From an uncultured Pelagibacteraceae bacterium (GTDB lineage: Bacteria > Pseudomonadota > Alphaproteobacteria > Pelagibacterales > Pelagibacteraceae), in NCBI GenBank assembly GCA_902621345.1, contig CACNLV010000002.1, positions 32,320 through 96,319 on the forward strand: a stretch of 64,000 nucleotides of DNA, given 5' to 3'. The position numbers and the translations under genes were made by a program. The notes under the pieces were generated by a model. That model was not told the origin of the DNA, searched no databases, and saw only the letters and a list, made by a program, of their open reading frames with translations. This document shows, piece after piece, positions 3,985 to 42,620 of this stretch. Within the stretch, counting starts at the first letter, position 1. Each line of letters starts with the position of its first letter.

Positions 3985-5199
3985 CTAATTATCTAATTTA
4001 AACTCTTTATGTAAAGCAATTAATGCTTTTTTAGTATTTCTTTTGTCAATCAAGACTGATATTTTAATTTCAGAAGTTGAAATAACTTGAATATTTATAT
4101 TTTTTTTTGCAAGTGCTTGAAACATTCTAAATGTTACTCCAGGTGTTGTAACCATTCCAACCCCTATAATTGAAAGTTTAGATACATTTTTTTTTAACAA
4201 TAATTTTCTAAATTTAATATTTTTGTTGTCTTCAATTATCTTTTTAGTTTTGTTTAAATCATCTGTTTTAATGGTAAATGTTAAATCGGTTTCATTACCG
4301 TTCGCTGAAATATTTTGAACAACCATATCAACATTAATTAAATTTTTTGATAAAGGTTTAAATATCATTGCAGCAACGCCAGGTTTGTCTTTAACTCCTA
4401 CTAGAGTAACTTTGGCATCATTTTGGGTTGAGGAAATACCTGCAATAATTTTATTATTAACAATATTTTTTCTTTTTGTGATCAATGTTCCAGGTTTTTT
4501 TTTAAATGAAGATTTTACCTCTATATTGATCCTATTTAAACGCGCATCCTGAATTGAAACTGGCTGCATAACTTTTGCACCTAGAGACGCCATTTCCAAC
4601 ATTTCTTCGTAAGAAATTACTTTTATTTTTCTTGCTTTTTTTAATTTATTTGGATCTGTTGTATAGACACCCTCAACATCAGTATAAATTATACATCTCT
4701 CTGCCTTAAAAAATTTAGCCAACATAATTGCACTAGCATCCGACCCACCTCTGCCAATCGTTTTTATTCTTTCATTAGTATCAATACCTTGAAAACCAGT
4801 TATAATTGGTATTCCACCTTTTTTGAGATAATCCAAAATTTTTTTTTTATAAATAGATAAAATCTTTGCATTTTTATGGCTGCCATAAGTTACAATTGGT
4901 ATTTGCCAAGATAACCAAGATCGAGATTTTAAGCCAATATGTGACAATCTTGCAGCAATTAAAGAGCATGCTACTTGTTCACCAGATGAAACTAGAACAT
5001 CATACTCAGAAGGTAAAAAATTTTCACTTATCCTCTTTGACTTTCTTATCAAATCGTTTGTAACACCACTCATAGCTGAAGATACTACAATAAGTTTATA
5101 CCTTTTTTTATGATATGAATTAATAATGTTGGCCACATTTTTAATTCTTTCAATGCTACCTACAGATGTTCCCCCAAATTTTAAAACTACAATTTTCAT
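3985..5199 (-). CDS. lysC: Aspartate kinase
   Basis: N-terminal KFGGTSV kinase motif, and C-terminal ACT-domain region ([17 protein letters not shown]). Confidence 0.95.
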
Positions 5200-5261
5200 G
5201 AATAAATATTTTTAAATTAAAATATTGATTAAATTCATCTTGAATATAAAATTTACTTATT

Positions 5262-5990
5262 ATGAAAACTAACACAATTAATAAAAAAGAAATAGAAAAA
5301 TTTTCTAAAATTGCTGAAGAATGGTGGGATCCCAATGGAAAATTTAAACCATTGCATAATTTTAATCCTCTAAGGATTTCTTATTTAAAAGAAAATATCA
5401 TTGAAACTTTCAATCTTCAAAAAAAAGATAAGATTCTTTCCGGTGTCAAAATTTTAGATATTGGTTGTGGTGGAGGATTATTATGTGAGCCTATGTCAAG
5501 ACTTGGTGCAGAAGTTTTTGGAATGGACGCATCTGAAAAAAATATAGAGGTAGCAAAAATTCATGCAAAAAAGAGTAGCCTAGATATTGAATATTTTTGC
5601 TCATCACCTGAAAAATTTCAGTCAGATTTAAAATTTGATGTTATACTTAATATGGAAATTATCGAACATGTAGAGGATGTAGATTTTTTTCTAAAGTCAT
5701 GCGCAAAGTTTTTGAAGAAAAATGGTATTATGTTTGTTGCAACATTAAATAAAACATTAAAATCTTATCTTTTTGCAATAATAGGTGCTGAATACATTCT
5801 TAGATGGCTTCCAATCGGAACACATGAGTGGGAAAAATTTGTAAAGCCTGAGGAGTTAATTAGCATAACAAAAAAATATGATCTTACTTTAAACGATTTG
5901 AAGGGAGTTAAACTTAATTTATTTACCAATAACTGGGAGTTAAGTACTGACAAATCGGTTAACTATATTGCTAAATTTATTAAGATATAA
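5262..5990 (+). CDS. ubiG: Ubiquinone biosynthesis O-methyltransferase
   Basis: FSKIAEEWWDPNGKFKPLH N-terminus and the LDIGCGGGLL SAM motif are typical of UbiG. Confidence 0.9.
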   Translation: MKTNTINKKEIEKFSKIAEEWWDPNGKFKPLHNFNPLRISYLKENIIETFNLQKKDKILSGVKILDIGCGGGLLCEPMSRLGAEVFGMDASEKNIEVAKIHAKKSSLDIEYFCSSPEKFQSDLKFDVILNMEIIEHVEDVDFFLKSCAKFLKKNGIMFVATLNKTLKSYLFAIIGAEYILRWLPIGTHEWEKFVKPEELISITKKYDLTLNDLKGVKLNLFTNNWELSTDKSVNYIAKFIKI

Positions 5991-5997
5991 TTTAAAT

Positions 5998-6426
5998 TTA
6001 ATTGTTTTTATCTTCTATCCAAGGAATTATTTCTGTATCAATTCCCTCTTCTCTTAAATCTTTAATCTCTTCTCTTGACGCAGTGCCATAAATTCCTTTA
6101 TCTTTTTTTTTATTTTTATAATGAATAGATCGAGCTTCATAAGCAAAATTTTCACCAACATATTCAAAATTTTTCTTAATAAATTTTTGATATTCTTTAA
6201 TTTTTTCATTAATTTTCCGATATTTATGATCCTTAATGTTGATATCTTTTTTCCATGACTTATTTAAAAATTTTGGTGCCATAAGAGTTTTTTCAACTTT
6301 TATTGATCCACATTTATGACAATTAAGATAATTTTTTTTTCTTAGTTTTTCATATTCCAGTGAAGATGCAAACCAACTATCGAATAGTAATCTGCATTTT
6401 TTACATTTTAATTTATACTTGATCAT
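5998..6426 (-). CDS. DUF1178 family protein (zinc-ribbon-like)
   Basis: MIKYKLKC..C..F.SWF...EYEKLRKK..L.CHKCGS.KVEKTLMAP matches the DUF1178 N-terminal consensus as I remember it. Confidence 0.75.
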   Translation of the reverse strand: MIKYKLKCKKCRLLFDSWFASSLEYEKLRKKNYLNCHKCGSIKVEKTLMAPKFLNKSWKKDINIKDHKYRKINEKIKEYQKFIKKNFEYVGENFAYEARSIHYKNKKKDKGIYGTASREEIKDLREEGIDTEIIPWIEDKNN

Positions 6427-6464
6427 TAATATTAATTAATTACTTAATTTAATATTTCAACTTA

Positions 6465-7766
6465 TTAACTTCTATAATCTGAGTTAATTTCAATATATTT
6501 TTTTGTCAAGTCCATGGTATAAGTAGTAAATTTTTTTGAACCTTTAAAAATATTTATATTGATATCAATATTGTCATTTTTCATATAATTTACAATATCA
6601 GACTCATTGTAGTTTAAATTTAATTTTCCGTTATTAATAATGGAAAATTCACCAAATTTTATAGCCAACTTGTCTAGGTTTATCTGAACATTTGATTTTC
6701 CGATTGCCATTACAATTCTGCCCCAATTTGGATCTTCGCCTGCTATAGCGGTTTTTACTAAAGGTGAATTAGCAACTGAAAAACCAATCTTTTTTGCATC
6801 ATCCTCATTTTTGCAATTTTCAACGTTAATAGTTATAAATTTTGATGCTCCCTCCCCATCTAAAACTACTCTTTTGGCTAAACTTAATAAAACTTTTTTT
6901 AATGCTACCTCAAAATCTTTTATTCTTTTATCATTGTAATTCTTAATTCTTGGGTGCTTTACTTTGCCAGTCGAAAAAATACTTACCATATCATTAGTAC
7001 TTGTATCCCCATCACAACTAATTGCATTAAAAGTTGTCGAAATGTTTTTTTTAAGAAGTTTTTTTAAAATTTCATTAGTTATGTCCGCATCAGTGAAAAT
7101 ATAAGCTAATGTTGTAGCCATATTGGGCTGAATCATTCCAGACCCCTTAGCAATACCAAAAATCTTAACAGAACTACCAGCAATTTTGCAATTTTCCATC
7201 GACATTTTAGGCTGTGTGTCTGTTGTCATAATACCTAAAGCTGCTTTCATCCATATGTACTTGTTCTGAGTATATCTTATATTTTTTACTAAAACTGGAA
7301 TCTTATTTTTAATTTTATCTTCTGGGAAAATTTCTCCAATCGTGCCAGTACAGCCAAATATTATCTCTTTTGGTTTAACTATTTTTGGATTATCTTCATC
7401 CTCCTTCTGTTTTGTAGTTAGTTCTTGTGAAATTAAGTCTGCTATTTTTTCAAGACTTCTGTATCCTTGTCTACCTGTAAAACAATTTGCATTTCTAGCA
7501 TTAACTAATAGCGAATATATTTTTTTCGAGTTTTGATTTAAGTTCCATTTTATATTTTCAGAGATAATTTTTGATTGTGTGTAGACAGAAGCATAATTTG
7601 CTCCATCTCTAAAATAAAACATTACTAGATCGTCTCTAGTATCTTTATAAAGATCTGCACATACACAAGAAATTGAGACACCATCAATATGATCTAAATC
7701 TTGATATTCTAACATTCTCTTATTTTTTGATTTAGACAATAAAAAATTAGGTAAATTTAGACCCAT
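6465..7766 (-). CDS. argJ: Bifunctional ornithine acetyltransferase / N-acetylglutamate synthase
   Basis: ArgJ autoprocessing region PNMATTLAYIFTDA and C-terminal GEDPNWGRI. The true start may be the internal Met at about 7715. Confidence 0.92.
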   Translation of the reverse strand: MGLNLPNFLLSKSKNKRMLEYQDLDHIDGVSISCVCADLYKDTRDDLVMFYFRDGANYASVYTQSKIISENIKWNLNQNSKKIYSLLVNARNANCFTGRQGYRSLEKIADLISQELTTKQKEDEDNPKIVKPKEIIFGCTGTIGEIFPEDKIKNKIPVLVKNIRYTQNKYIWMKAALGIMTTDTQPKMSMENCKIAGSSVKIFGIAKGSGMIQPNMATTLAYIFTDADITNEILKKLLKKNISTTFNAISCDGDTSTNDMVSIFSTGKVKHPRIKNYNDKRIKDFEVALKKVLLSLAKRVVLDGEGASKFITINVENCKNEDDAKKIGFSVANSPLVKTAIAGEDPNWGRIVMAIGKSNVQINLDKLAIKFGEFSIINNGKLNLNYNESDIVNYMKNDNIDININIFKGSKKFTTYTMDLTKKYIEINSDYRS

Positions 7767-33800: not shown

Positions 33801-35022
33801 AGAAATTGATCTTAGCTTAGATCGAATAAAAAATCTTTGCAAAAAATTGGGAAACCCACAAGATGAAATAAAGTGTATACAAGTCTGTGGAACTAATGGG
33901 AAAGGTAGTACAATTTCTTTTTTAAGATCTATACTTAGAGAAGCAAATATTAAATGTAATGTATACACCTCTCCTCATGTAAAGAGTATTAATGAGAGAT
34001 TTGTTTATAATGACGAAATGATCAGTGATAATGATTTATCTGATTTACTATCCAAAATTGAGGAAGTAAACAATAATCAACCTTTAACATATTTTGAAGC
34101 TCTCACAGCTGCATTTTTTTACGGATGCAAAAAGTATAAAGAAAATCTTGTGATTGCAGAATTTGGCTTATTTGGAAGAGGGGATGCTGTAAATATTCTA
34201 AAAAAAAATCTTTGTAATATTGTTACATCATGTAGTGAGGATCATTTGGACTGGCTTCCAGAAAATGACAGAACTATTGAAAGAATAATTTTTGAAAAAA
34301 CTTCCTCTTTACTAAATTCAAATATAGTAGTTGCTAAGCAAAATTCTAATGAAATTGTAGAATGTATTAAGAAAAATATATCTGAGAATAATGCAAATAA
34401 ATATTTTTTTAATGAAAATTACAATTTTGTATTAAAGGAAAATAATTTCTTTTATTATAAAGATAAATATGGTGGTTTAAAAATTCCTAAACCCAATTTA
34501 AACGGACAATTTCAACTTGAGAATGCTTCTACAGCAATTGCAACATTAAGAATTTTAGAAGATATAAAAATTAAGGACCAACACATAATAAATGGAGTTC
34601 AAAAAGCATCCCATATTGCTAGACTTGAGGAAATTAAATCTGGTAAACTAAAAAACTTAGTGAAAAATAATAAACTAATTCTTGATTCTTCACATAATCC
34701 TGGTGGATCAAAAGTTCTTAATGAATATCTTCAGACTTTAGATTGTAACAAACATGTTATTATAGGAATGATGGCTAATAAAAATCACGAAGAATACATA
34801 AGTTATTTTAAAAATATTTCATCTTTGACTACAGTTGATATACCAAATCAACCTAATGCAATAAGTGGAAAAGAATTAAAAGAAAAATTTAAGGATATAC
34901 CTAATGTTAATTATAAAGAGAGTATCCAAAAAGCTATTCGATCAATAAACTTAAAAGAGAACGATTTGCTTTTAATTACTGGTTCATTGTATTTAAGTGG
35001 AGAATTTTTAAATATTAATTAA
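33754..35022 (+). CDS. folC: Dihydrofolate synthase / folylpolyglutamate synthase
   Basis: Mur-ligase P-loop GTNGKGST. accD-folC synteny, with a 47-nt overlap with accD. Confidence 0.9.
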   Translation: MKLLRTLNRLQKLHPKEIDLSLDRIKNLCKKLGNPQDEIKCIQVCGTNGKGSTISFLRSILREANIKCNVYTSPHVKSINERFVYNDEMISDNDLSDLLSKIEEVNNNQPLTYFEALTAAFFYGCKKYKENLVIAEFGLFGRGDAVNILKKNLCNIVTSCSEDHLDWLPENDRTIERIIFEKTSSLLNSNIVVAKQNSNEIVECIKKNISENNANKYFFNENYNFVLKENNFFYYKDKYGGLKIPKPNLNGQFQLENASTAIATLRILEDIKIKDQHIINGVQKASHIARLEEIKSGKLKNLVKNNKLILDSSHNPGGSKVLNEYLQTLDCNKHVIIGMMANKNHEEYISYFKNISSLTTVDIPNQPNAISGKELKEKFKDIPNVNYKESIQKAIRSINLKENDLLLITGSLYLSGEFLNIN

Positions 35023-35336
35023 ATATTTTTTTCCAAAAATTCTTTCATGTTACTTTCTGGGACCCCACCAACTTTTCTGTCAACCTCAACACCTTTTTTA
35101 TAAATTATAACAGTTGGTACACCTCTTATCCCTGCAGCACTTCCTGTATTTATGCCTCCATCTTCAATATCAGCATAATAAAAACCAGCTTTATCCTTAT
35201 ACTCAACTGCTAACTTATCCATTATTGGTTTCAATGTCTTACAAGGACCACACCAAGCTGCTGAAAATTGAATTACAGATACATCCTCACTTTTGATTTT
35301 ACTTTCAAAATCTTCATCTTTGAAATCTATAAGCAT
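35019..35336 (-). CDS. trxA: Thioredoxin
   Basis: WCGPC active site. Length is 105 aa. Confidence 0.95.
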   Translation of the reverse strand: MLIDFKDEDFESKIKSEDVSVIQFSAAWCGPCKTLKPIMDKLAVEYKDKAGFYYADIEDGGINTGSAAGIRGVPTVIIYKKGVEVDRKVGGVPESNMKEFLEKNI

Positions 35337-35370: not shown

Positions 35371-36807
35371 CTACGTAAATTCATACTTTTTTTCAATTGA
35401 CATAATAAATTGGTTAATTTCATCCAATTTTTTTAATTCAACTTCATCATCTCTATTTGATGCTTGATCTCTTAAATAATCAATTTCAGTATAAGCCATA
35501 TTAATTGTTTGCCATTTTTCTTTGTTTTTACTTAAAATTCTTCTGGCAATTTCACTTTTAATATTTTTGTATAAGTCAGGTGGTAAGATTTGGGGTGCTT
35601 CTTGATAAATTATTTTTTGACCGAACCAACTACATCTTTTGTCCGTAAACTTGTCTAGTAATCTTAACTTATCCTCCCACGAGGAGCTGTGCCAAGTTTT
35701 AAATAATGCAGTATCTTTATTTGGAATAAATTTTTCATATAAAGTTTCTTCTGGTAATAAGTCTTCCTGAGTTTTGGTTTGTGCTTTTTCTTCAGCTGCT
35801 TCTCTGTGAATAATCTGAATATTTTTACAAAAATTTTCATTTTCCCTAACGAGTTTAGCTCTTTTTTGAATAATTGCTAAATCTAAGTCTAAGTAAGGCT
35901 TTTGTTTTAAAGCATACTCTTTACTCATAACTACTGGAGCTTTATTTGTTTTTAGAACCCTAAGTGCTTTAGGACTAAATTTTTTCAAAATATCTCTCAA
36001 TTGATTGACAGATAAATTTAAAAATGGTTCGGGATCTCTTCTTAGATCCCAAAGATATCCCCATGATGCGTATGAAGGATGAAAAGAATGCTTCGGGTGT
36101 AAGGTGCAAGCAAGGTACATCATATTTCTACCCTTAACATTTTCAAATATTGAATATATGCCATCATTTGTAAGTAATGTCTCCACACTTGTCTTTGTTG
36201 AAGTTTTTAGAAAAGTATCCCAATTATCTTTATGTTTATCTCTTATAATTCTAAGGACTTTTAATGAAGTATACGCATCGTGAAAAGCCGTGTGTTGTTG
36301 AGATGTATCAAATCCTTGCATTCTAGCTAATGCTTCTAAGGCTAGACTTGGGTTTCCAGCTTCAGTCAATTCTGTTTTCAAGGTTTCTGGGTTTAAAGTT
36401 TGTGCTGCCCTTGCTATATGCAAACCATCATGTTCTTGATTTGGTGAAGAGTGAGTAAGATAAGGATATCTATTTCCTTTAAAGAAATTAAAATGAAACA
36501 TTCTTCTATCAAAATTTAGGTTTGACCAACCCATAAACATTGCAGGACCAGCCTTTGAAAAAAAATTTTCTACTGCACCTAAAAATTCATAATGTGAATA
36601 ATTGCCTTTAGTTAGTAGATCAATACTTGTTGAATTAACAAGTAATGCCTTTGCACTTGGCACCTCTCCTTCTGGCATTCTGCCTCTAATATTAAGTTTT
36701 CCAATTTCTTTTAAATTTCTATCAACTACGACTGCTCCAACCTCAATTATTGAACCCCAGATTGTGCTATTAGTTGTTTCTGTATCGTAAATTACTATTT
36801 TATCCAT
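35371..36807 (-). CDS. sbcB: Exodeoxyribonuclease I-like DEDDh exonuclease
   Basis: N-terminal Exo motif YDTET, WSNLNFDRRMF (compare E. coli YNNVRFDDEV, from memory), HDAYTS (the H-x4-D motif) and a long helical C-terminal domain. The 478 aa length matches ExoI. Confidence 0.82.
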   Translation of the reverse strand: MDKIVIYDTETTNSTIWGSIIEVGAVVVDRNLKEIGKLNIRGRMPEGEVPSAKALLVNSTSIDLLTKGNYSHYEFLGAVENFFSKAGPAMFMGWSNLNFDRRMFHFNFFKGNRYPYLTHSSPNQEHDGLHIARAAQTLNPETLKTELTEAGNPSLALEALARMQGFDTSQQHTAFHDAYTSLKVLRIIRDKHKDNWDTFLKTSTKTSVETLLTNDGIYSIFENVKGRNMMYLACTLHPKHSFHPSYASWGYLWDLRRDPEPFLNLSVNQLRDILKKFSPKALRVLKTNKAPVVMSKEYALKQKPYLDLDLAIIQKRAKLVRENENFCKNIQIIHREAAEEKAQTKTQEDLLPEETLYEKFIPNKDTALFKTWHSSSWEDKLRLLDKFTDKRCSWFGQKIIYQEAPQILPPDLYKNIKSEIARRILSKNKEKWQTINMAYTEIDYLRDQASNRDDEVELKKLDEINQFIMSIEKKYEFT

Positions 36808-36809
36808 TT

Positions 36810-37580
36810 TTAAAATTCATTTAAATTTGAAAGTTCATGAAATTTTTTTAATCTTCCTAAAAACAAATTTTGATAGGTAATTAATTCAGTTCCTTGAATT
36901 TTAAATTCTTGAAACAAATTATCCACTGTACAAACAAGTATAACACAAGCATTGATATTAGAATTATAAACTACATTATGAGCTAATGAGTAGGCTGCGG
37001 TTTGTAGTAGCCAAGAATCTATATACTCTACTTTTTTTGGTTTATTAGATTGTTTAAAGTCAATTATGGTTTCCTTGCCCTCATATAGTCCAACACAATC
37101 TGCGGTGCCCGCAAACTTTTCAGGGTAATACATGGTGCACTCAACCCCATAGATTTCCTCTAACCTGTTTGTTAATCCTCTATCAATAATTTCTTTCGCC
37201 ATTTTTTTATATTGTTCATTATCCTCAAAAAAACTCAAATTTTCTCTTCCTAAAAGATAAGACTCTAAATAACTATGCATTTGAGATCCTCTACTACTAG
37301 CCGCCTTAGTAATTGCCTCTGCTTCTTTATAGCCAGTTCTTTCTCGCCAATTTGCTAATGCCGCTTTATCTTCCTCAGATTTTGTTGCATCAAGAATTGA
37401 TGTTACACTTGGTAATTTTGTTTCTCCTAAAACATATCTTCTTATTCCATCTTCTGTTGCTCTTGATGATGTAGGGTAATTGTATTTCTTATTCCAACGC
37501 ATGTGATTTCTTATAGTCGGTAATATGTGAAAAAAGAAATTATTTTTTGAGCTGTTTATTTCTTTCAACAAATTTCTCAA
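36810..37580 (-). CDS. PD-(D/E)XK nuclease, MGME1-like
   Basis: LPSVTSIL, GSQMHSYLESYL, DCVGLYEGKETIIDFKQSNKPK (D...D-x-K core) and LLQTAAY. The start may be the internal Met at 37502, which would remove the 41-nt overlap with rmuC. Confidence 0.7.
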   Translation of the reverse strand: MRNLLKEINSSKNNFFFHILPTIRNHMRWNKKYNYPTSSRATEDGIRRYVLGETKLPSVTSILDATKSEEDKAALANWRERTGYKEAEAITKAASSRGSQMHSYLESYLLGRENLSFFEDNEQYKKMAKEIIDRGLTNRLEEIYGVECTMYYPEKFAGTADCVGLYEGKETIIDFKQSNKPKKVEYIDSWLLQTAAYSLAHNVVYNSNINACVILVCTVDNLFQEFKIQGTELITYQNLFLGRLKKFHELSNLNEF

Positions 37581-38631
37581 CGTTCTCTGTTAGTACAGCC
37601 TTTTCAACTTGCTCGGGATCTTTAATATTTTCTAAAGTTCTAGTAATTGATCTTGCATCTTTTCCAAAACTATCAACAACTGTCATGGCCTCTTCAAGTT
37701 TTTTTCTTAATTTATAAATATTATCAAAATGACTAGAAAATCTCGTACTTATAGTTTTTAGATGATCATAAATCTCTGTTGCGTGTTTTGAAATTTTGAG
37801 AGATTGAAATCCCATGTGTAAAGACTGTAAATAAGCTGATAAAGTATTAGGGCCACAAATTACTATTTTATATTTTTTCATTAATTCTTGAGTTAATAAC
37901 TCTTTAGTGCTTGGGTCTTGGTACTCAGTTAACTCTTTATAAAGACTTTCAGTAGGAGCATATACTATTGCAAAATTTGACGTTTTTGGAGGAACGATAT
38001 ATTTCTCCATGACACTTTTTGCTTTGGCCTTAAATGCGCTTGCTAATTTTGTTCTAGCATCTGCAACTGCTTTTTTATTATCTGCCTCATGCGCATCTGT
38101 AATTGCCTTAAATTTTTCTATTGGAAAATGAGAGTCTACCGGAACCAAAACATCTCCTTGAAGCTTGATTGCAAATTCCACATTTTCACTGGTATCTTCT
38201 TTCATTTTGACATTGGTCATATATTGAGACGCAGGTAATAAATCTTTAATTAAAGCATCCAAAGAATATTCAGCTAAAGTTCCATACTTTTTAACCCCTG
38301 CTAAAATTTTAGTAATCCCCTCTTGGCTATGATTTAATAATTTAACTTGTTCGTTAAAATTCCCAACCTTCTCATCAACTTTAGTAAGTGCCTCGGTCAT
38401 GTCCTTTGTAACCCCAGTTGATAAAGAGTTAAATGATGTAGACATCGAACTTAGAGATGTATTGATTGTAGAGTTTAAACTATCTTTTAATCTAATAATT
38501 TCCGCATTTAAATTTGCTATTTCATTAGTCTCATCAGCTCCGTTCTCTTTCTTGGACTTTATATTTAAATACAAAATAGCCAAGATTGCTCCAAACATTA
38601 AAATCAAAATTATTAATAAAATTGTGTCCAT
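37540..38631 (-). CDS. rmuC: DNA recombination protein RmuC
   Basis: N-terminal TM helix, a coiled coil, and the RmuC domain (DSHFPIEKF, VYAPTESLY, VICGPNTL). Confidence 0.85.
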   Translation of the reverse strand: MDTILLIILILMFGAILAILYLNIKSKKENGADETNEIANLNAEIIRLKDSLNSTINTSLSSMSTSFNSLSTGVTKDMTEALTKVDEKVGNFNEQVKLLNHSQEGITKILAGVKKYGTLAEYSLDALIKDLLPASQYMTNVKMKEDTSENVEFAIKLQGDVLVPVDSHFPIEKFKAITDAHEADNKKAVADARTKLASAFKAKAKSVMEKYIVPPKTSNFAIVYAPTESLYKELTEYQDPSTKELLTQELMKKYKIVICGPNTLSAYLQSLHMGFQSLKISKHATEIYDHLKTISTRFSSHFDNIYKLRKKLEEAMTVVDSFGKDARSITRTLENIKDPEQVEKAVLTENVEKFVERNKQLKK

Positions 38632-38778
38632 GATTCGTAACTTGTATTATAAGGGATTTTTATGGAATTATATCTTATTTTGAAAATTATTTTTGGAATA
38701 GGGTTTCTAATAGCTGCTTATGCAATAATAAGAAATTTAGATATCATCAAAATTATTCTCATATACTTTAAAGATAAA

Positions 38779-39468: not shown

Positions 39469-40520
39469 TAAAAATTTAGATTAAGCGCAGCTCCAACTGC
39501 TGGTATTTGTTTTTTTGAACCAAGATCAGAAATTAGTTTGTCATAACGGCCACCATTACAACAATTAGCAATCTTTGACTTTGATTTAATATCGATTTTA
39601 AAAACCATTCCTGTATAATATTCCAGTTGCCGACCAAAGGCACTGGAGAAAACTACATTTAATTTGGATATTTTATTTTTTGAGATTGGGAAATATTTCT
39701 GATCGACGACAAGATTTATTCTGTTTTTCTTGAAAAATTTATTCAACTGACTCGCAGCTTTATTAATCGGACATTTAATTTTCAAAAATTCTTTAATAAT
39801 CTTTGAAACATTTTTTCCTCTGCTTGCTCTCCTTGGGTCCTTAATTTTTTTATCAAATCTTTCTAAAATTTCTTTAATAGTTCTACCTGCAACAATAGAT
39901 ATTTGGTCATCCTTTAACATTTTTAAATATCGTTTTTTATCAACTTCAACAATAGTTGGATCTACATCGGAATTAGTCTCTAATCTTTTTAATAAATCAC
40001 TGAAATAATCTTCTCTCCAAAAATGTCTTGTAAGTCTTAATTTCCATCTTTTTGGTATATCTAATTTAGATATTAGAAGATTAAAAATCTCCACATTACC
40101 AATAGTGAGAGTGCCTGTAGAATATTTTAGATCTTTGAGTGATTTAAGAGACGTATTTATTATTTCTTTGTCATCATTTTTTTCATCTTTTGATCCTATA
40201 ATCTCAAAGCCAACTTGATTTCTTATTATAGAGTCTTTTTTATTTTGAGATTTTCTGTAAGCCTGTCCACTATAAAATATTTTTTCTTTCCCCTTTAAAT
40301 TTTTTTCTAAATATCTTAGACAAGAGACGATTGTAAGATCCGGTCTTAGACATAATTCATTACCTGACTGATCTGTAAATGAAAAAATAAATTTCCTAAA
40401 ACTCTCACCTGATCGCTGCACTATATGATTTGTTTCAATAACAGAAGGTAATTCAATATATTTAAATCCTTTAGATTTTACCGATTTAAGAATTTTGTCA
40501 GATAAATTTTTTGATCTCAT
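39468..40520 (-). CDS. hisZ: ATP phosphoribosyltransferase regulatory subunit
   Basis: Paralogous to the HisRS catalytic core (LRPDLT, GGRYD) but with no anticodon-binding domain. Lies between hisS and hisG. Confidence 0.85.
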   Translation of the reverse strand: MRSKNLSDKILKSVKSKGFKYIELPSVIETNHIVQRSGESFRKFIFSFTDQSGNELCLRPDLTIVSCLRYLEKNLKGKEKIFYSGQAYRKSQNKKDSIIRNQVGFEIIGSKDEKNDDKEIINTSLKSLKDLKYSTGTLTIGNVEIFNLLISKLDIPKRWKLRLTRHFWREDYFSDLLKRLETNSDVDPTIVEVDKKRYLKMLKDDQISIVAGRTIKEILERFDKKIKDPRRASRGKNVSKIIKEFLKIKCPINKAASQLNKFFKKNRINLVVDQKYFPISKNKISKLNVVFSSAFGRQLEYYTGMVFKIDIKSKSKIANCCNGGRYDKLISDLGSKKQIPAVGAALNLNF

Positions 40521-41895
40521 TAATTAAATTTTCTTTTGGAAACGTTTTTTGGTTATTTTCACCTTTAATACCAAGTAAGTTTTTTAATGTTACTTTATTT
40601 TCCTTAAACTCATTTTCTCCACAAATTACTGCAACTGGGCACCCTCTTTTATTTGCATAAGTCAGTTGCTTGCCAAGATTTTTTTTACTATCTAAAAATA
40701 TTTCTGAATTAATGTTATTTTTTCTCAAATTATCTAAAATCTCATAATAATTTGGTAAATATTTTTCATCCATCACACATACAATTATCGGCTTTTGTTC
40801 ATCGATTTCTATCTGATCTAATTGCGTCATAGCAAATAGCAATCTATCAACACCAATACTTATACCAGTTCCAGGAATGTCTACACCTTTAAATCTAGAA
40901 ATTAATTTATCGTATTGTCCGCCTGAGCAAATGCTTCCAATATCAACTTCTTTACCTTTGTTATTTTTTACTTTAAAATTTAAATTTGTTTCAACACAAA
41001 AACCATCGTAATAATCAAGACCTCTAACAATTGTAAAATTGGTTTTAACTTGATCAAAATAAGATCCGAAAACTAAAATTTCAAAAAATTCCTCTAGTTC
41101 TTTAATTCCCTCTTGTGTAAGAGAGTTTTTAAAATTTTGTTTTAATTCCTTTAAATCCCTAATCTTTAAAAAATCTAAAATTTTTGCAGCTTGATCATTG
41201 CTTAGATCAGCTCCTTTTGTAATAGCTCCACTTTTATCTTTTCTCTCTTTTTTTAATAATTCCTCTACTCCCTTAAATCCAAAGTCAGGTTTATCTAATT
41301 TATCGATCGCTCTCATTACTTTAATCTTTTTATTTTCTGGGATTTTAAGGTCCTCAATTAAACCTTGAACAATTTTTCTATTACTAACATTAATAGTGAA
41401 CTGGTTTTTGTTTAAACCAACTTCAATCAATGTGCTTGCAATAAGATTGCATAATTCAGCATTTGCCTGTGCTGAATTGACGTTACCCACAATATCACAA
41501 TCTGCCTGTGTAAATTCTCTAAAACGAGCATTGCCAGACTTTTCATTTCTAAATACATTTTGAATAGCGTATCTTTTATATATTGAGGGAAGTTCTTGAT
41601 TGTTTTGTGCAACAAATCTTGCTAGTGGACTTGAGAGATCATATCTAAGAGTAATATTTTTTTCACCATCATTAAAAGAGAAAACATCAGACATAGGATT
41701 ACTATCATCCTCTGCAAGAAAGGATCCAATATTTTCTGCAATTTCAAATGACGGGGTCTCTAATGGATCAAATCCATATTTTATAAAATTCTTCTCAATA
41801 ACTTTTAAAAGTTTTTTTTTGAGAAATAATTTTTTATTCCATCTATCTTCAAATCCTGAGGGTAAACCAGGAATTAATTTATTATCTTTATTCAT
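40498..41895 (-). CDS. hisS: Histidine--tRNA ligase
   Basis: Class II motifs (LRYDLSSPLARF, FRNEKSGNARFREFTQ, GGQYD, GISIGVDR) plus an anticodon-binding domain. The start is set at the Met at 41895, because the longer ORF (to 41943) runs into the tRNA-His gene. Confidence 0.93.
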   Translation of the reverse strand: MNKDNKLIPGLPSGFEDRWNKKLFLKKKLLKVIEKNFIKYGFDPLETPSFEIAENIGSFLAEDDSNPMSDVFSFNDGEKNITLRYDLSSPLARFVAQNNQELPSIYKRYAIQNVFRNEKSGNARFREFTQADCDIVGNVNSAQANAELCNLIASTLIEVGLNKNQFTINVSNRKIVQGLIEDLKIPENKKIKVMRAIDKLDKPDFGFKGVEELLKKERKDKSGAITKGADLSNDQAAKILDFLKIRDLKELKQNFKNSLTQEGIKELEEFFEILVFGSYFDQVKTNFTIVRGLDYYDGFCVETNLNFKVKNNKGKEVDIGSICSGGQYDKLISRFKGVDIPGTGISIGVDRLLFAMTQLDQIEIDEQKPIIVCVMDEKYLPNYYEILDNLRKNNINSEIFLDSKKNLGKQLTYANKRGCPVAVICGENEFKENKVTLKNLLGIKGENNQKTFPKENLINEIKKFI

Positions 41896-41899
41896 TTTT

Positions 41900-41974
41900 T
41901 GGTACCCGGGCTGAGAGTCGAACTCAAACTTAAAGTTCCACAAACTTCCGTGCTAACCATTACACCACCCGGGC
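41900..41974 (-). tRNA. tRNA-His (anticodon GUG), CCA encoded, no encoded G-1
   Basis: The minus-strand cloverleaf is GCCCGGG TG GTGT AATGGTTA GCAC G GAAGT TTGTGGA ACTTT AAGT TTGAG TTCGACT CTCAG CCCGGGT A CCA. The anticodon loop is TT-GTG-GA. Confidence 0.93.
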
Positions 41975-42545: not shown

Positions 42546-42620
42546 TGGTGGCTGAGGAAGGATTCGCACCTCCGACACAAGCCTTTTCAGGGCTCTGCTC
42601 TACTCCTGAGCTACTCAGCC
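42546..42620 (-). tRNA. tRNA-Phe (anticodon GAA), CCA encoded
   Basis: The minus-strand cloverleaf is GGCTGAG TA GCTC AGGAGTA GAGC A GAGCC CTGAAAA GGCTT GTGTC GGAGG TGCGAAT CCTTC CTCAGCC A CCA. Confidence 0.93.

Follow-up and report, generated by a model that had tools for sequence, protein, structure and literature searches.

In a 64,000-nt stretch of DNA from an uncultured Pelagibacteraceae bacterium of the SAR11 group (contig CACNLV010000002.1 of assembly GCA_902621345.1, positions 32,320 to 96,319; the whole stretch is referred to below as the window), three neighboring genes on the minus strand encode an RmuC-family protein, a nuclease resembling human MGME1 and an enzyme resembling exonuclease I (ExoI). 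The original prediction took the three genes for a single three-component module of DNA-end processing. Our analysis points to a smaller unit: the MGME1-like and the ExoI-like genes probably form the conserved core pair, with rmuC as a lineage-specific, replaceable neighbor and not an obligate third subunit. What stands of the coherent unit is the pair of exonucleases of opposite predicted polarity, found together in almost every locus and exchanged as a cassette; rmuC as the third component does not. The identities originally given to the three genes were correct by Pfam, NCBIfam and phmmer.

For the comparison, 161 SAR11 loci were pooled. They came from the 80 species genomes nearest to the window (the best 80 of the 562 matches of a genome-contig scan, all Pelagibacteraceae), one 298-kb lagoon contig and 80 metagenome contigs seeded with the lagoon-contig protein. 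The ExoI-like gene directly followed the MGME1-like gene in 141 of the 142 evaluable loci, and trxA came directly after the ExoI-like gene in 110 out of 110. The adjacency of the pair and the position of trxA were also retained in a lineage that shares only about 50% identity with the window in hisG and hisZ. Synteny beyond this strain, which a neighborhood survey of all three genes had been proposed to reveal, was therefore found for the pair, while the rmuC arrangement was limited to one clade.

The best evidence that the MGME1-like and ExoI-like genes belong together was provided by five loci (L171-L175). Their MGME1-like proteins are 52-56% and their ExoI-like proteins 41-43% identical to those of the window, whereas the flanks are ordinary (RmuC 82-92%, TrxA 84-90% and HisG 83% identical). 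A divergent pair set between ordinary flanks shows that both genes were exchanged as one cassette. In L174, the two genes (4462-5148 and 5145-6590) overlap by 4 nt at the stop and start codons, and all the catalytic residues are kept. The ratio of nonsynonymous to synonymous substitution rates (dN/dS), calculated at dS of about 1, was 0.037 for the MGME1-like gene, 0.039 for the ExoI-like gene and 0.071 for rmuC; the neighbors hisG, trxA and folC gave 0.072, 0.031 and 0.118, respectively. Purifying selection on the three genes is thus strong, matching or exceeding that on the housekeeping flanks hisG and folC, and the pair belongs to the core of SAR11 and is highly constrained.

The position upstream of the pair is much less uniform. 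Among 150 loci evaluable for rmuC, 122 carry an rmuC of the window type on the same strand, three carry a third type, also on the same strand and 54-58% identical, and 15 carry an alternative RmuC (alt-RmuC) on the opposite strand. In eight loci there is no rmuC and hisG lies approximately 200-490 nt from the MGME1-like gene, one locus has an unclassified arrangement, and one (L153) has a remnant, a 92-residue C-terminal open reading frame (ORF) of the third-type RmuC (855-1133) between hisG and the intact pair. When measured by tblastn, 115 of the 122 window-type loci had a distance of 40-43 nt between the end of rmuC and the start of the MGME1-like gene.

The alt-RmuC proteins (378-407 residues; L076:5798-6934, L052:5779-7002 and L079:2116-3303, all on the minus strand, and 12 further loci) have the canonical PD..DAK motif and match the Pfam family at 2e-40 and the PADLOC model RTasRmuC at 1.3e-34. 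BLASTP detected no similarity between them and the window RmuC, which points to an in-situ exchange of two very distant members of one family. In L079 and L142, 1.3-2 kb of cargo lies between alt-RmuC and the pair. In a neighbor-joining tree of the MGME1-like and ExoI-like pair, with the lagoon locus as the root, the alt-type loci formed a basal grade and every window-type locus fell into one derived clade, hence the same-strand rmuC arrangement looks like a single event. Altogether, rmuC is not needed at the locus of the pair.

The designation of the middle gene as MGME1-like was upheld by its sequence, active site and fold. In phmmer, residues 50-249 of the 256-residue ORF matched human MGME1 at 8e-11. 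A first profile of the family had no stretch conserved enough for searching; the profile of 39 members hit MGME1 at 3.7e-25 and no other significant family in the PDB. Seven columns are invariant in the family alignment (H76, E121, D135, D148, K150, Q167 and Y171), and they align with H180, E223, D238, D251, K253, Q271 and Y275 of human MGME1, all of which bind metal or DNA (PMC6237815). The AlphaFold2 (AF2) model had a mean predicted local distance difference test score (pLDDT) of 95.6 and a predicted template modeling (TM) score of 0.91. When it was compared with the PDB by Foldseek, the nine best matches were human MGME1 (E of 3.5e-13 to 2.2e-10, TM 0.69-0.83), with RecE as the runner-up at 5.6e-5 and the Cas4-like and AdnAB/AddAB nuclease domains (about 1e-3) far behind. 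Pfam PDDEXK_1 gave 19 bits, under its cut-off of 22.

Judged from sequence and modeled structure, the middle gene is a true member of the MGME1 family and a confident homologue. The human enzyme (PDB 5ZYT/5ZYU/5ZYV/8XA9) has the same fold (Foldseek TM 0.72-0.83), shares all seven active-site and DNA-contact residues and, like the SAR11 protein, is a single small protein with a nuclease core of approximately 230 residues. The differences are the identity of just 22-26% and the setting of the SAR11 gene, which is bacterial and chromosomal, has no targeting peptide and has an ExoI-like gene as its partner. The human enzyme has a preference for 5' ends, and flaps and overhangs are cleaved by it as well (PMC6237815); the SAR11 protein is predicted to be an exonuclease of single-stranded DNA (ssDNA) that attacks free ends or flaps. 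The reading of the middle gene as a decayed domain of AddA/AddB or Cas4 was rejected since the profile matches MGME1 alone. A special link between SAR11 and the mitochondrion was likewise rejected, because the SAR11 copies (45-47 bits) and a large-phage copy (39 bits) score alike against human MGME1.

The MGME1-like family is large, with 3431 representatives (at 50% identity) at E <= 0.001, and the Joint Genome Institute (JGI) names its members 'genome maintenance exonuclease 1'. The window protein matched phrog_298 'exonuclease' at 3.9e-47, and tblastn found matches in 922 phage records, the closest being the pelagiphages HTVC023P and HTVC027P at 42%. Cyanophages and the jumbo phages 121Q and PA5oct carry members of the same phrog_298 family. 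Outside SAR11, the relatives were phage-borne wherever the context was readable, and three contigs of 155-330 kb around family members resemble large phage genomes. Representatives at 45-49% identity came from short contigs of 1-3 kb with small unannotated ORFs only. The best 120 matches of the MGME1-like protein, as well as those of RmuC, were all SAR11-like. Unlike the core chromosomal copy of SAR11, the phage copies in the three large contigs that were read sit among phage genes (ribonucleotide reductase, Mtd_N-like) and never adjoin a gene for an ExoI-like or RmuC protein. In these contigs (L088:5001-6713, L089:5001-7570 and L090:5001-9437), a protein with a weak Mtd_N match follows the MGME1-like gene directly or after one gene, and two of them (L088 and L090) have ribonucleotide reductase genes downstream. 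This arrangement may represent a conserved phage neighborhood of the exonuclease. Intermediate MGME1-like proteins also occur: P0090, P0102 and P0113 share 73-76% identity with the window protein and 63-65% with that of the L174 type. No paper on bacterial or phage MGME1 homologues was found in the literature.

The third gene encodes a DEDDh exonuclease with both domains expected of ExoI. Pfam Exonuc_X-T_C (PF08411) matched residues 243-467 at 6.7e-16 (58.6 bits against a cut-off of 27) and RNase_T matched at 1.5e-5 (26 bits against 24). The NCBIfam ExoI model (NF008746) aligned end to end (4-471 to 9-473 of 477) at 2.6e-32, and the PDB structure of ExoI was hit at 5.7e-16. The score of 112.1 bits is under the equivalog cut-off of NF008746 (260 bits), and for this reason we name the protein ExoI-like and not SbcB. 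The residues D8, E10, D100, H172 and D177 of the DEDDh site are invariant among five SAR11 variants that are 42-82% identical. With E. coli exonuclease I (SbcB/XonA) the protein has in common the DEDDh domain and the ExoI-specific C-terminal domain, and it is predicted to be a 3'->5' ssDNA exonuclease. The PADLOC model RTasSbcB scored higher (2.9e-58, 196 bits) than NCBIfam ExoI. As a sign of a defense-associated reverse transcriptase (DRT) system this match was ruled out: the neighbors are only hisG, rmuC, trxA and folC, and there is no reverse transcriptase nearby.

The SAR11 protein is closer to 'exonuclease domain-containing proteins' of alphaproteobacterial plasmids (1e-35 to 1e-43) than to canonical sbcB products (1e-9 to 1e-18). 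No match was found in INPHARED and no relative in IMG/VR. The plasmid proteins, with 26-28% identity over 89-96% of the length, are the nearest ExoI-like relatives found outside SAR11. They are encoded as the third gene of a module, after a helix-turn-helix (HTH) regulator and an ImmA/IrrE metallopeptidase (L091:5096-7401, L092:5139-7383, L093:5086-7407, L094:4124-6407 and L095:4175-6395). The module is divergent from multiubiquitin/ThiF loci, two of which include a large PD-(D/E)XK protein, or else from a locus with a nucleotidyltransferase and a SLATT protein. It looks like a damage-responsive regulator of the CapH/CapP type to which an ssDNA exonuclease has been added; no description of such an HTH-ImmA/IrrE-exonuclease module was found. 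The SAR11 gene, in contrast, is chromosomal and core, without HTH or ImmA/IrrE partners and without an adjacent multiubiquitin/ThiF locus or a locus similar to the cyclic-oligonucleotide-based anti-phage signaling system (CBASS).

The window RmuC clearly belongs to its family (PF02646 at 2.3e-49, 168.5 bits against a cut-off of 26), and its close homologues are labeled 'DNA recombination protein RmuC [Candidatus Pelagibacter]' in public records. Its architecture, a hydrophobic N-terminal helix (MDTILLIILILMFGAILAILYL), a coiled-coil region and a nuclease-like domain, is that of E. coli RmuC (YigN) and of ShdA, the RmuC-domain effector of the Shield defense system (PMC1189080, PMC10270631). The nuclease-like character ascribed to it agrees with this domain and architecture, but the canonical PD..(D/E)xK motif, a hallmark of the family (Kosinski 2005, PMC1189080), is replaced by E..D-S-H. 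The segment E152...D166-S-H168 aligns with 'PDVIVRLPQGKDVVIDAKMTL' of E. coli and 'PDMLLKFPERNYIVDAKVSL' of alt-RmuC, so that a histidine stands in place of the catalytic lysine of the PD...D-A-K found in both. Of 73 window-type copies, 72 keep the E..D-S-H motif, which is invariant in the RmuC alignment and occurs also in the 54%-identical third type (L149:370-1419). The site is constrained but non-canonical, and the protein may be either an active nuclease variant or non-catalytic. None of the PADLOC RmuC models matched the window RmuC and there was no relative in the PDB; the AF2 model (pLDDT 44; shallow alignment, 82-93% identity) was unusable. Unlike ShdA, the window protein is encoded between core genes and not in a defense island. 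In E. coli, rmuC has udp and ubiE as neighbors and no linkage to sbcB. Two longer metagenomic homologues, P0390 (511 residues) and P0391 (420 residues), are 85-88% identical to the window RmuC and have additional precomputed Pfam matches (PF25894 in both, PF06160 in P0390); their length may reflect coiled-coil expansions or assembly artefacts.

The positions of the genes and of the other features are collected in Table 1. The ORFs were confirmed as three same-strand genes, and the spacings reported for them were exact: rmuC overlaps the MGME1-like ORF by 41 nt from the TTG start or precedes it by 37 nt from the ATG, and 2 nt separate the MGME1-like stop from the ExoI-like ATG. Homologues of the MGME1-like protein are 226-232 residues long and begin with M(K/R)WNKKY, so the internal ATG is likely the true start, with a gap of 37 nt and no overlap. 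The gene trxA, 34 nt downstream of the ExoI-like gene, is part of the same run and converges with folC-accD-trpA-trpB on the plus strand.

Table 1. Features of the window and cargo at the hisG/rmuC junction of related loci.
Feature	Position	Strand	Description
Gene run of the window		-	hisS, hisZ, hisG, rmuC, MGME1-like, ExoI-like, trxA in this order (ORF list)
trxA (thioredoxin)	35019-35336	-	WCGPC motif in the ORF
ExoI-like DEDDh exonuclease	35371-36807	-	478 residues
MGME1-like PD-(D/E)XK (RecB-like) nuclease	36810-37502	-	230 residues from ATG
MGME1-like gene, alternative TTG start	36810-37580	-	256-residue ORF
Spacer, rmuC stop to MGME1-like ATG	37503-37539	-	37 nt, from sequence
rmuC	37540-38631	-	363-residue RmuC-family protein
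RmuC non-canonical active-site stretch	38128-38178	-	E152...D166-S167-H168 (VEFAIKLQGDVLVPVDSHFP)
hisG/rmuC intergenic junction	38632-38778	none	147 nt, empty in the window
tRNA-His	41903-41974	-	directly upstream of hisS-hisZ-hisG, same strand
tRNA-Phe	42549-42620
Cargo, L052	2900-5800		C5 methyltransferases, Bsp6I-like restriction endonuclease, EVE-domain protein (with L079)
Cargo, L079	65-5310		C5 methyltransferases, Bsp6I-like restriction endonuclease, EVE-domain protein (with L052)
Cargo, L008	1-5700		Vsr and PDC-M33A-like protein
Cargo, L038	95-5800		AAA_15/AAA_21 ATPase (PADLOC NsnB, AriA, GajA-like) and weak NurA match
Cargo, L011	1500-5700		HATPase_c_3 / MzaB-like (MORC-like) protein

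The close packing, read originally as a sign of an operon, turned out to be the norm of this genome. According to rough, ATG-only gene calls in the 64-kb window, the median gap between same-strand neighbors is 2 nt and 80% of the gaps do not exceed 40 nt, which makes the packing of the three genes uninformative; the functionally unrelated accD and folC likewise overlap. The three genes, which may be co-transcribed, share a strand, have gaps of 37 nt and 2 nt and lack a terminator-like site, but the scans themselves were uninformative in this AT-rich DNA, being at the level of shuffled sequence: 20 promoter-like matches in the region against 21.4 expected from shuffles and two terminator-like matches against 1.8. 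The terminator scan showed no intergenic terminator between the three genes, and the scan for a LexA-type box, at chance level in DNA of about 29% G+C, showed none.

The statement that no integrase, repeat or tRNA bounds the locus was borne out. The Rfam, repeat and tRNA scans revealed no tRNA, Rfam element or meaningful repeat at its borders, the two tRNAs of Table 1 being the only ones. If read from its most distant start (TTG), the hisS ORF (40498-41943) runs into tRNA-His, hence hisS probably starts at the ATG at 41895. Upstream of hisS lie hisD, a DUF2948 gene and aroA, as judged by position and length in comparison with L001; tsaE or a nucleotidyltransferase at this place was ruled out by the same comparison. 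The hisZ and hisG genes abut in the window, unlike in L024 (4190-5050), L034 (4115-4963), L076 (4127-4968) and L103/L130/L158/L176, where approximately 850 nt extra separate them.

In several relatives, the junction between hisG and rmuC looks different. It is empty in the window and flanked by core genes, and to this extent the claim that the locus is not a mobile defense island holds; relatives, on the other hand, carry defense cargo directly upstream (Table 1), and alt-RmuC sits there beside restriction-modification (R-M) genes. No integrase was present among the Pfam matches of 18 scanned cargo proteins and no tRNA was found at the junction. The window locus thus borders a variable defense-gene hotspot, even though its own junction is empty.

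The pair would act as follows. The MGME1-like and then the ExoI-like gene, probably translationally coupled, are both transcribed towards trxA; rmuC, encoding a membrane-anchored protein, is probably co-transcribed with them in this strain. As deduced from its family, the MGME1-like enzyme would thread a free ssDNA end or a flap and then degrade the strand, and the ExoI-like enzyme would degrade ssDNA in the 3'->5' direction. Jointly they could remove single strands of both polarities, such as flaps, helicase-opened gaps and unwound linear DNA. RecJ and ExoI of E. coli offer a parallel for the removal of ssDNA of both polarities. The proposed joint action also resembles the clearance of linear mitochondrial DNA (mtDNA) by MGME1 and the POLG exonuclease; a passage of PMC5928156 attributes the degradation of linear mtDNA to MGME1 and the replication machinery.

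The location of the pair raises the possibility of an ancestral occupant. In Brucella abortus, an operon proven by reverse transcription-PCR ends with addB-addA, a small ORF and trx-1, and folC comes next (PMC9491525). The SAR11 pair has the same position, so it may fill the slot upstream of trxA that belongs to addB-addA in Alphaproteobacteria and may have displaced AddAB, possibly as an in-situ, helicase-less substitute in a streamlined genome. AddAB and the pair have in common the location directly upstream of trxA and next to folC (PMC9491525) and a role in DNA-end processing, which is predicted for the pair. AddA and AddB also carry RecB-like PD-(D/E)XK domains of the superfamily to which the MGME1-like protein belongs (Foldseek about 1e-3), but the MGME1-like profile has no sequence match to either of them. 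The AddAB genes span about 6.5 kb, whereas the pair spans 2.1 kb and has no helicase or ATPase. The nearest outside relatives identified for the pair are in phages for the MGME1-like and on alphaproteobacterial plasmids for the ExoI-like protein. A search of plasmids with TrxA returned no alphaproteobacterial record. The literature on SAR11 with AddAB or RecBCD yielded nothing useful. A broader scenario, to which we assign only a small chance, holds that a phage-derived MGME1-like and a plasmid-type ExoI-like protein replaced AddAB in situ. The two would make up a minimal system without a helicase that handles DNA ends and linear DNA, both for repair and to destroy incoming phage DNA. It would be the bacterial counterpart of linear-mtDNA clearance, and an arms race with pelagiphage inhibitors would have left its mark in the two deeply divergent alleles of the pair and in the turnover of membrane-bound RmuC variants beside a defense hotspot.

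Three other explanations were weighed against the core-pair reading. The three genes might encode one machine, in which a membrane-tethered, structure-specific RmuC nuclease feeds two ssDNA exonucleases to control recombination and inversion or to clear ends. The shared strand, the constant spacer of about 40 nt in the window-type loci (122 of 150), the lack of a terminator-like site and the purifying selection on all three genes are in line with such a machine, as is the fact that a missing window-type rmuC is usually substituted by the alternative (15 loci) or the third type (three loci). Nevertheless, we consider it unlikely. The pair persists in eight loci of a separate lineage without rmuC and beside the mere remnant in L153. 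The cassette swap of L171-L175 excluded rmuC, and the same-strand arrangement is confined to one clade. Alt-RmuC, encoded on the opposite strand, is outside the operon, has no BLASTP similarity to the window RmuC and in two loci is removed from the pair by cargo. The missing catalytic lysine of the window RmuC and the unlinked rmuC of E. coli add to these objections. An equally low probability is given to a defense region, in which the main task of the nucleases, alone or together with RmuC, is to degrade phage or other incoming linear DNA and their diversity reflects an arms race with phage inhibitors. Here the core-gene behavior of the pair, which no sampled SAR11 locus lacks and whose dN/dS is about 0.04, is unlike that of defense genes that come and go, and the window has no regulator, reverse transcriptase, methylase or integrase, no PADLOC match of RmuC and no tRNA or repeat boundary. 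The absence of ExoI-like relatives from IMG/VR and INPHARED also speaks against it. The cargo of relatives (R-M, Vsr, AAA_15/AAA_21 ATPase, MORC-like), the Shield effector function of RmuC domains (PMC10270631), the PADLOC scores of alt-RmuC and of the ExoI-like protein, the plasmid modules beside multiubiquitin/ThiF or CBASS-like loci, the mostly phage-borne MGME1-like family, and the occurrence at one locus of two deeply divergent pair alleles with three or four rmuC states all fit a defense role. A dual role in repair and restriction, like that of RecBCD, would blur the boundary between this explanation and the core pair. Less probable still is that three independent repair genes merely stay together through the dense and slowly changing gene order of SAR11, so that even the adjacency of the pair is functionally meaningless. 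All the loci come from one order, the functionally unrelated flanks hisG, trxA and folC are equally syntenic, and small gaps and overlaps of unrelated genes are usual in the window. Mere neighborhood does not agree with the joint exchange of the pair in five loci with rmuC and trxA unchanged, with the overlapping stop and start retained by the divergent pair, or with the complementary polarities predicted for the same class of substrate.

The core-pair reading, which we favor, has its own difficulties. Of the 150 loci, 140 have one or another RmuC-family gene no more than 2 kb upstream, which is the strongest argument for the three-component model; this persistence after replacement could reflect a real functional tie that a view restricted to the pair underrates. 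All the sampled loci are from SAR11, whose conservation is partly shared ancestry, and gene order in this genome is generally dense and stable. The polarity and the substrates are deduced from an MGME1 of 22-26% identity and from distant ExoI homologues; with 112 bits at a cut-off of 260 in the NCBIfam ExoI model, the activity of the ExoI-like protein may be different. The deep two-allele polymorphism is unusual for a housekeeping pair and is unaccounted for by the core-pair reading. As for the AddAB slot, which the pair may occupy, the idea is founded on one published operon, that of Brucella, and on general background for other Alphaproteobacteria.

The proteins described here are of known families, and we found no published description of a fixed bacterial MGME1-like and ExoI-like module, of its cassette exchange or of the adjoining RmuC turnover. 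By-products of the analysis are the defense hotspot between hisG and rmuC and the undescribed HTH-ImmA/IrrE-exonuclease plasmid module near ubiquitin-like and CBASS-like systems. The locus also illustrates that in streamlined genomes gene packing is weak evidence for operon function. A core chromosomal MGME1 homologue fixed beside an ExoI-like gene offers a tractable bacterial model of an enzyme otherwise studied only in mitochondria. Mitochondrial DNA-maintenance proteins are thought to have phage-like relatives, and MGME1 would join them. SAR11 is described in a passage of PMC3421443 as the most abundant marine bacterial group, and the DNA-end processing enzymes retained in its very small genome are informative. 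If the pair replaces AddAB/RecBCD, it would offer a new and minimal way of resecting ends and degrading linear DNA, with a bearing on the high recombination of SAR11 and on the interplay between pelagiphages and their hosts.

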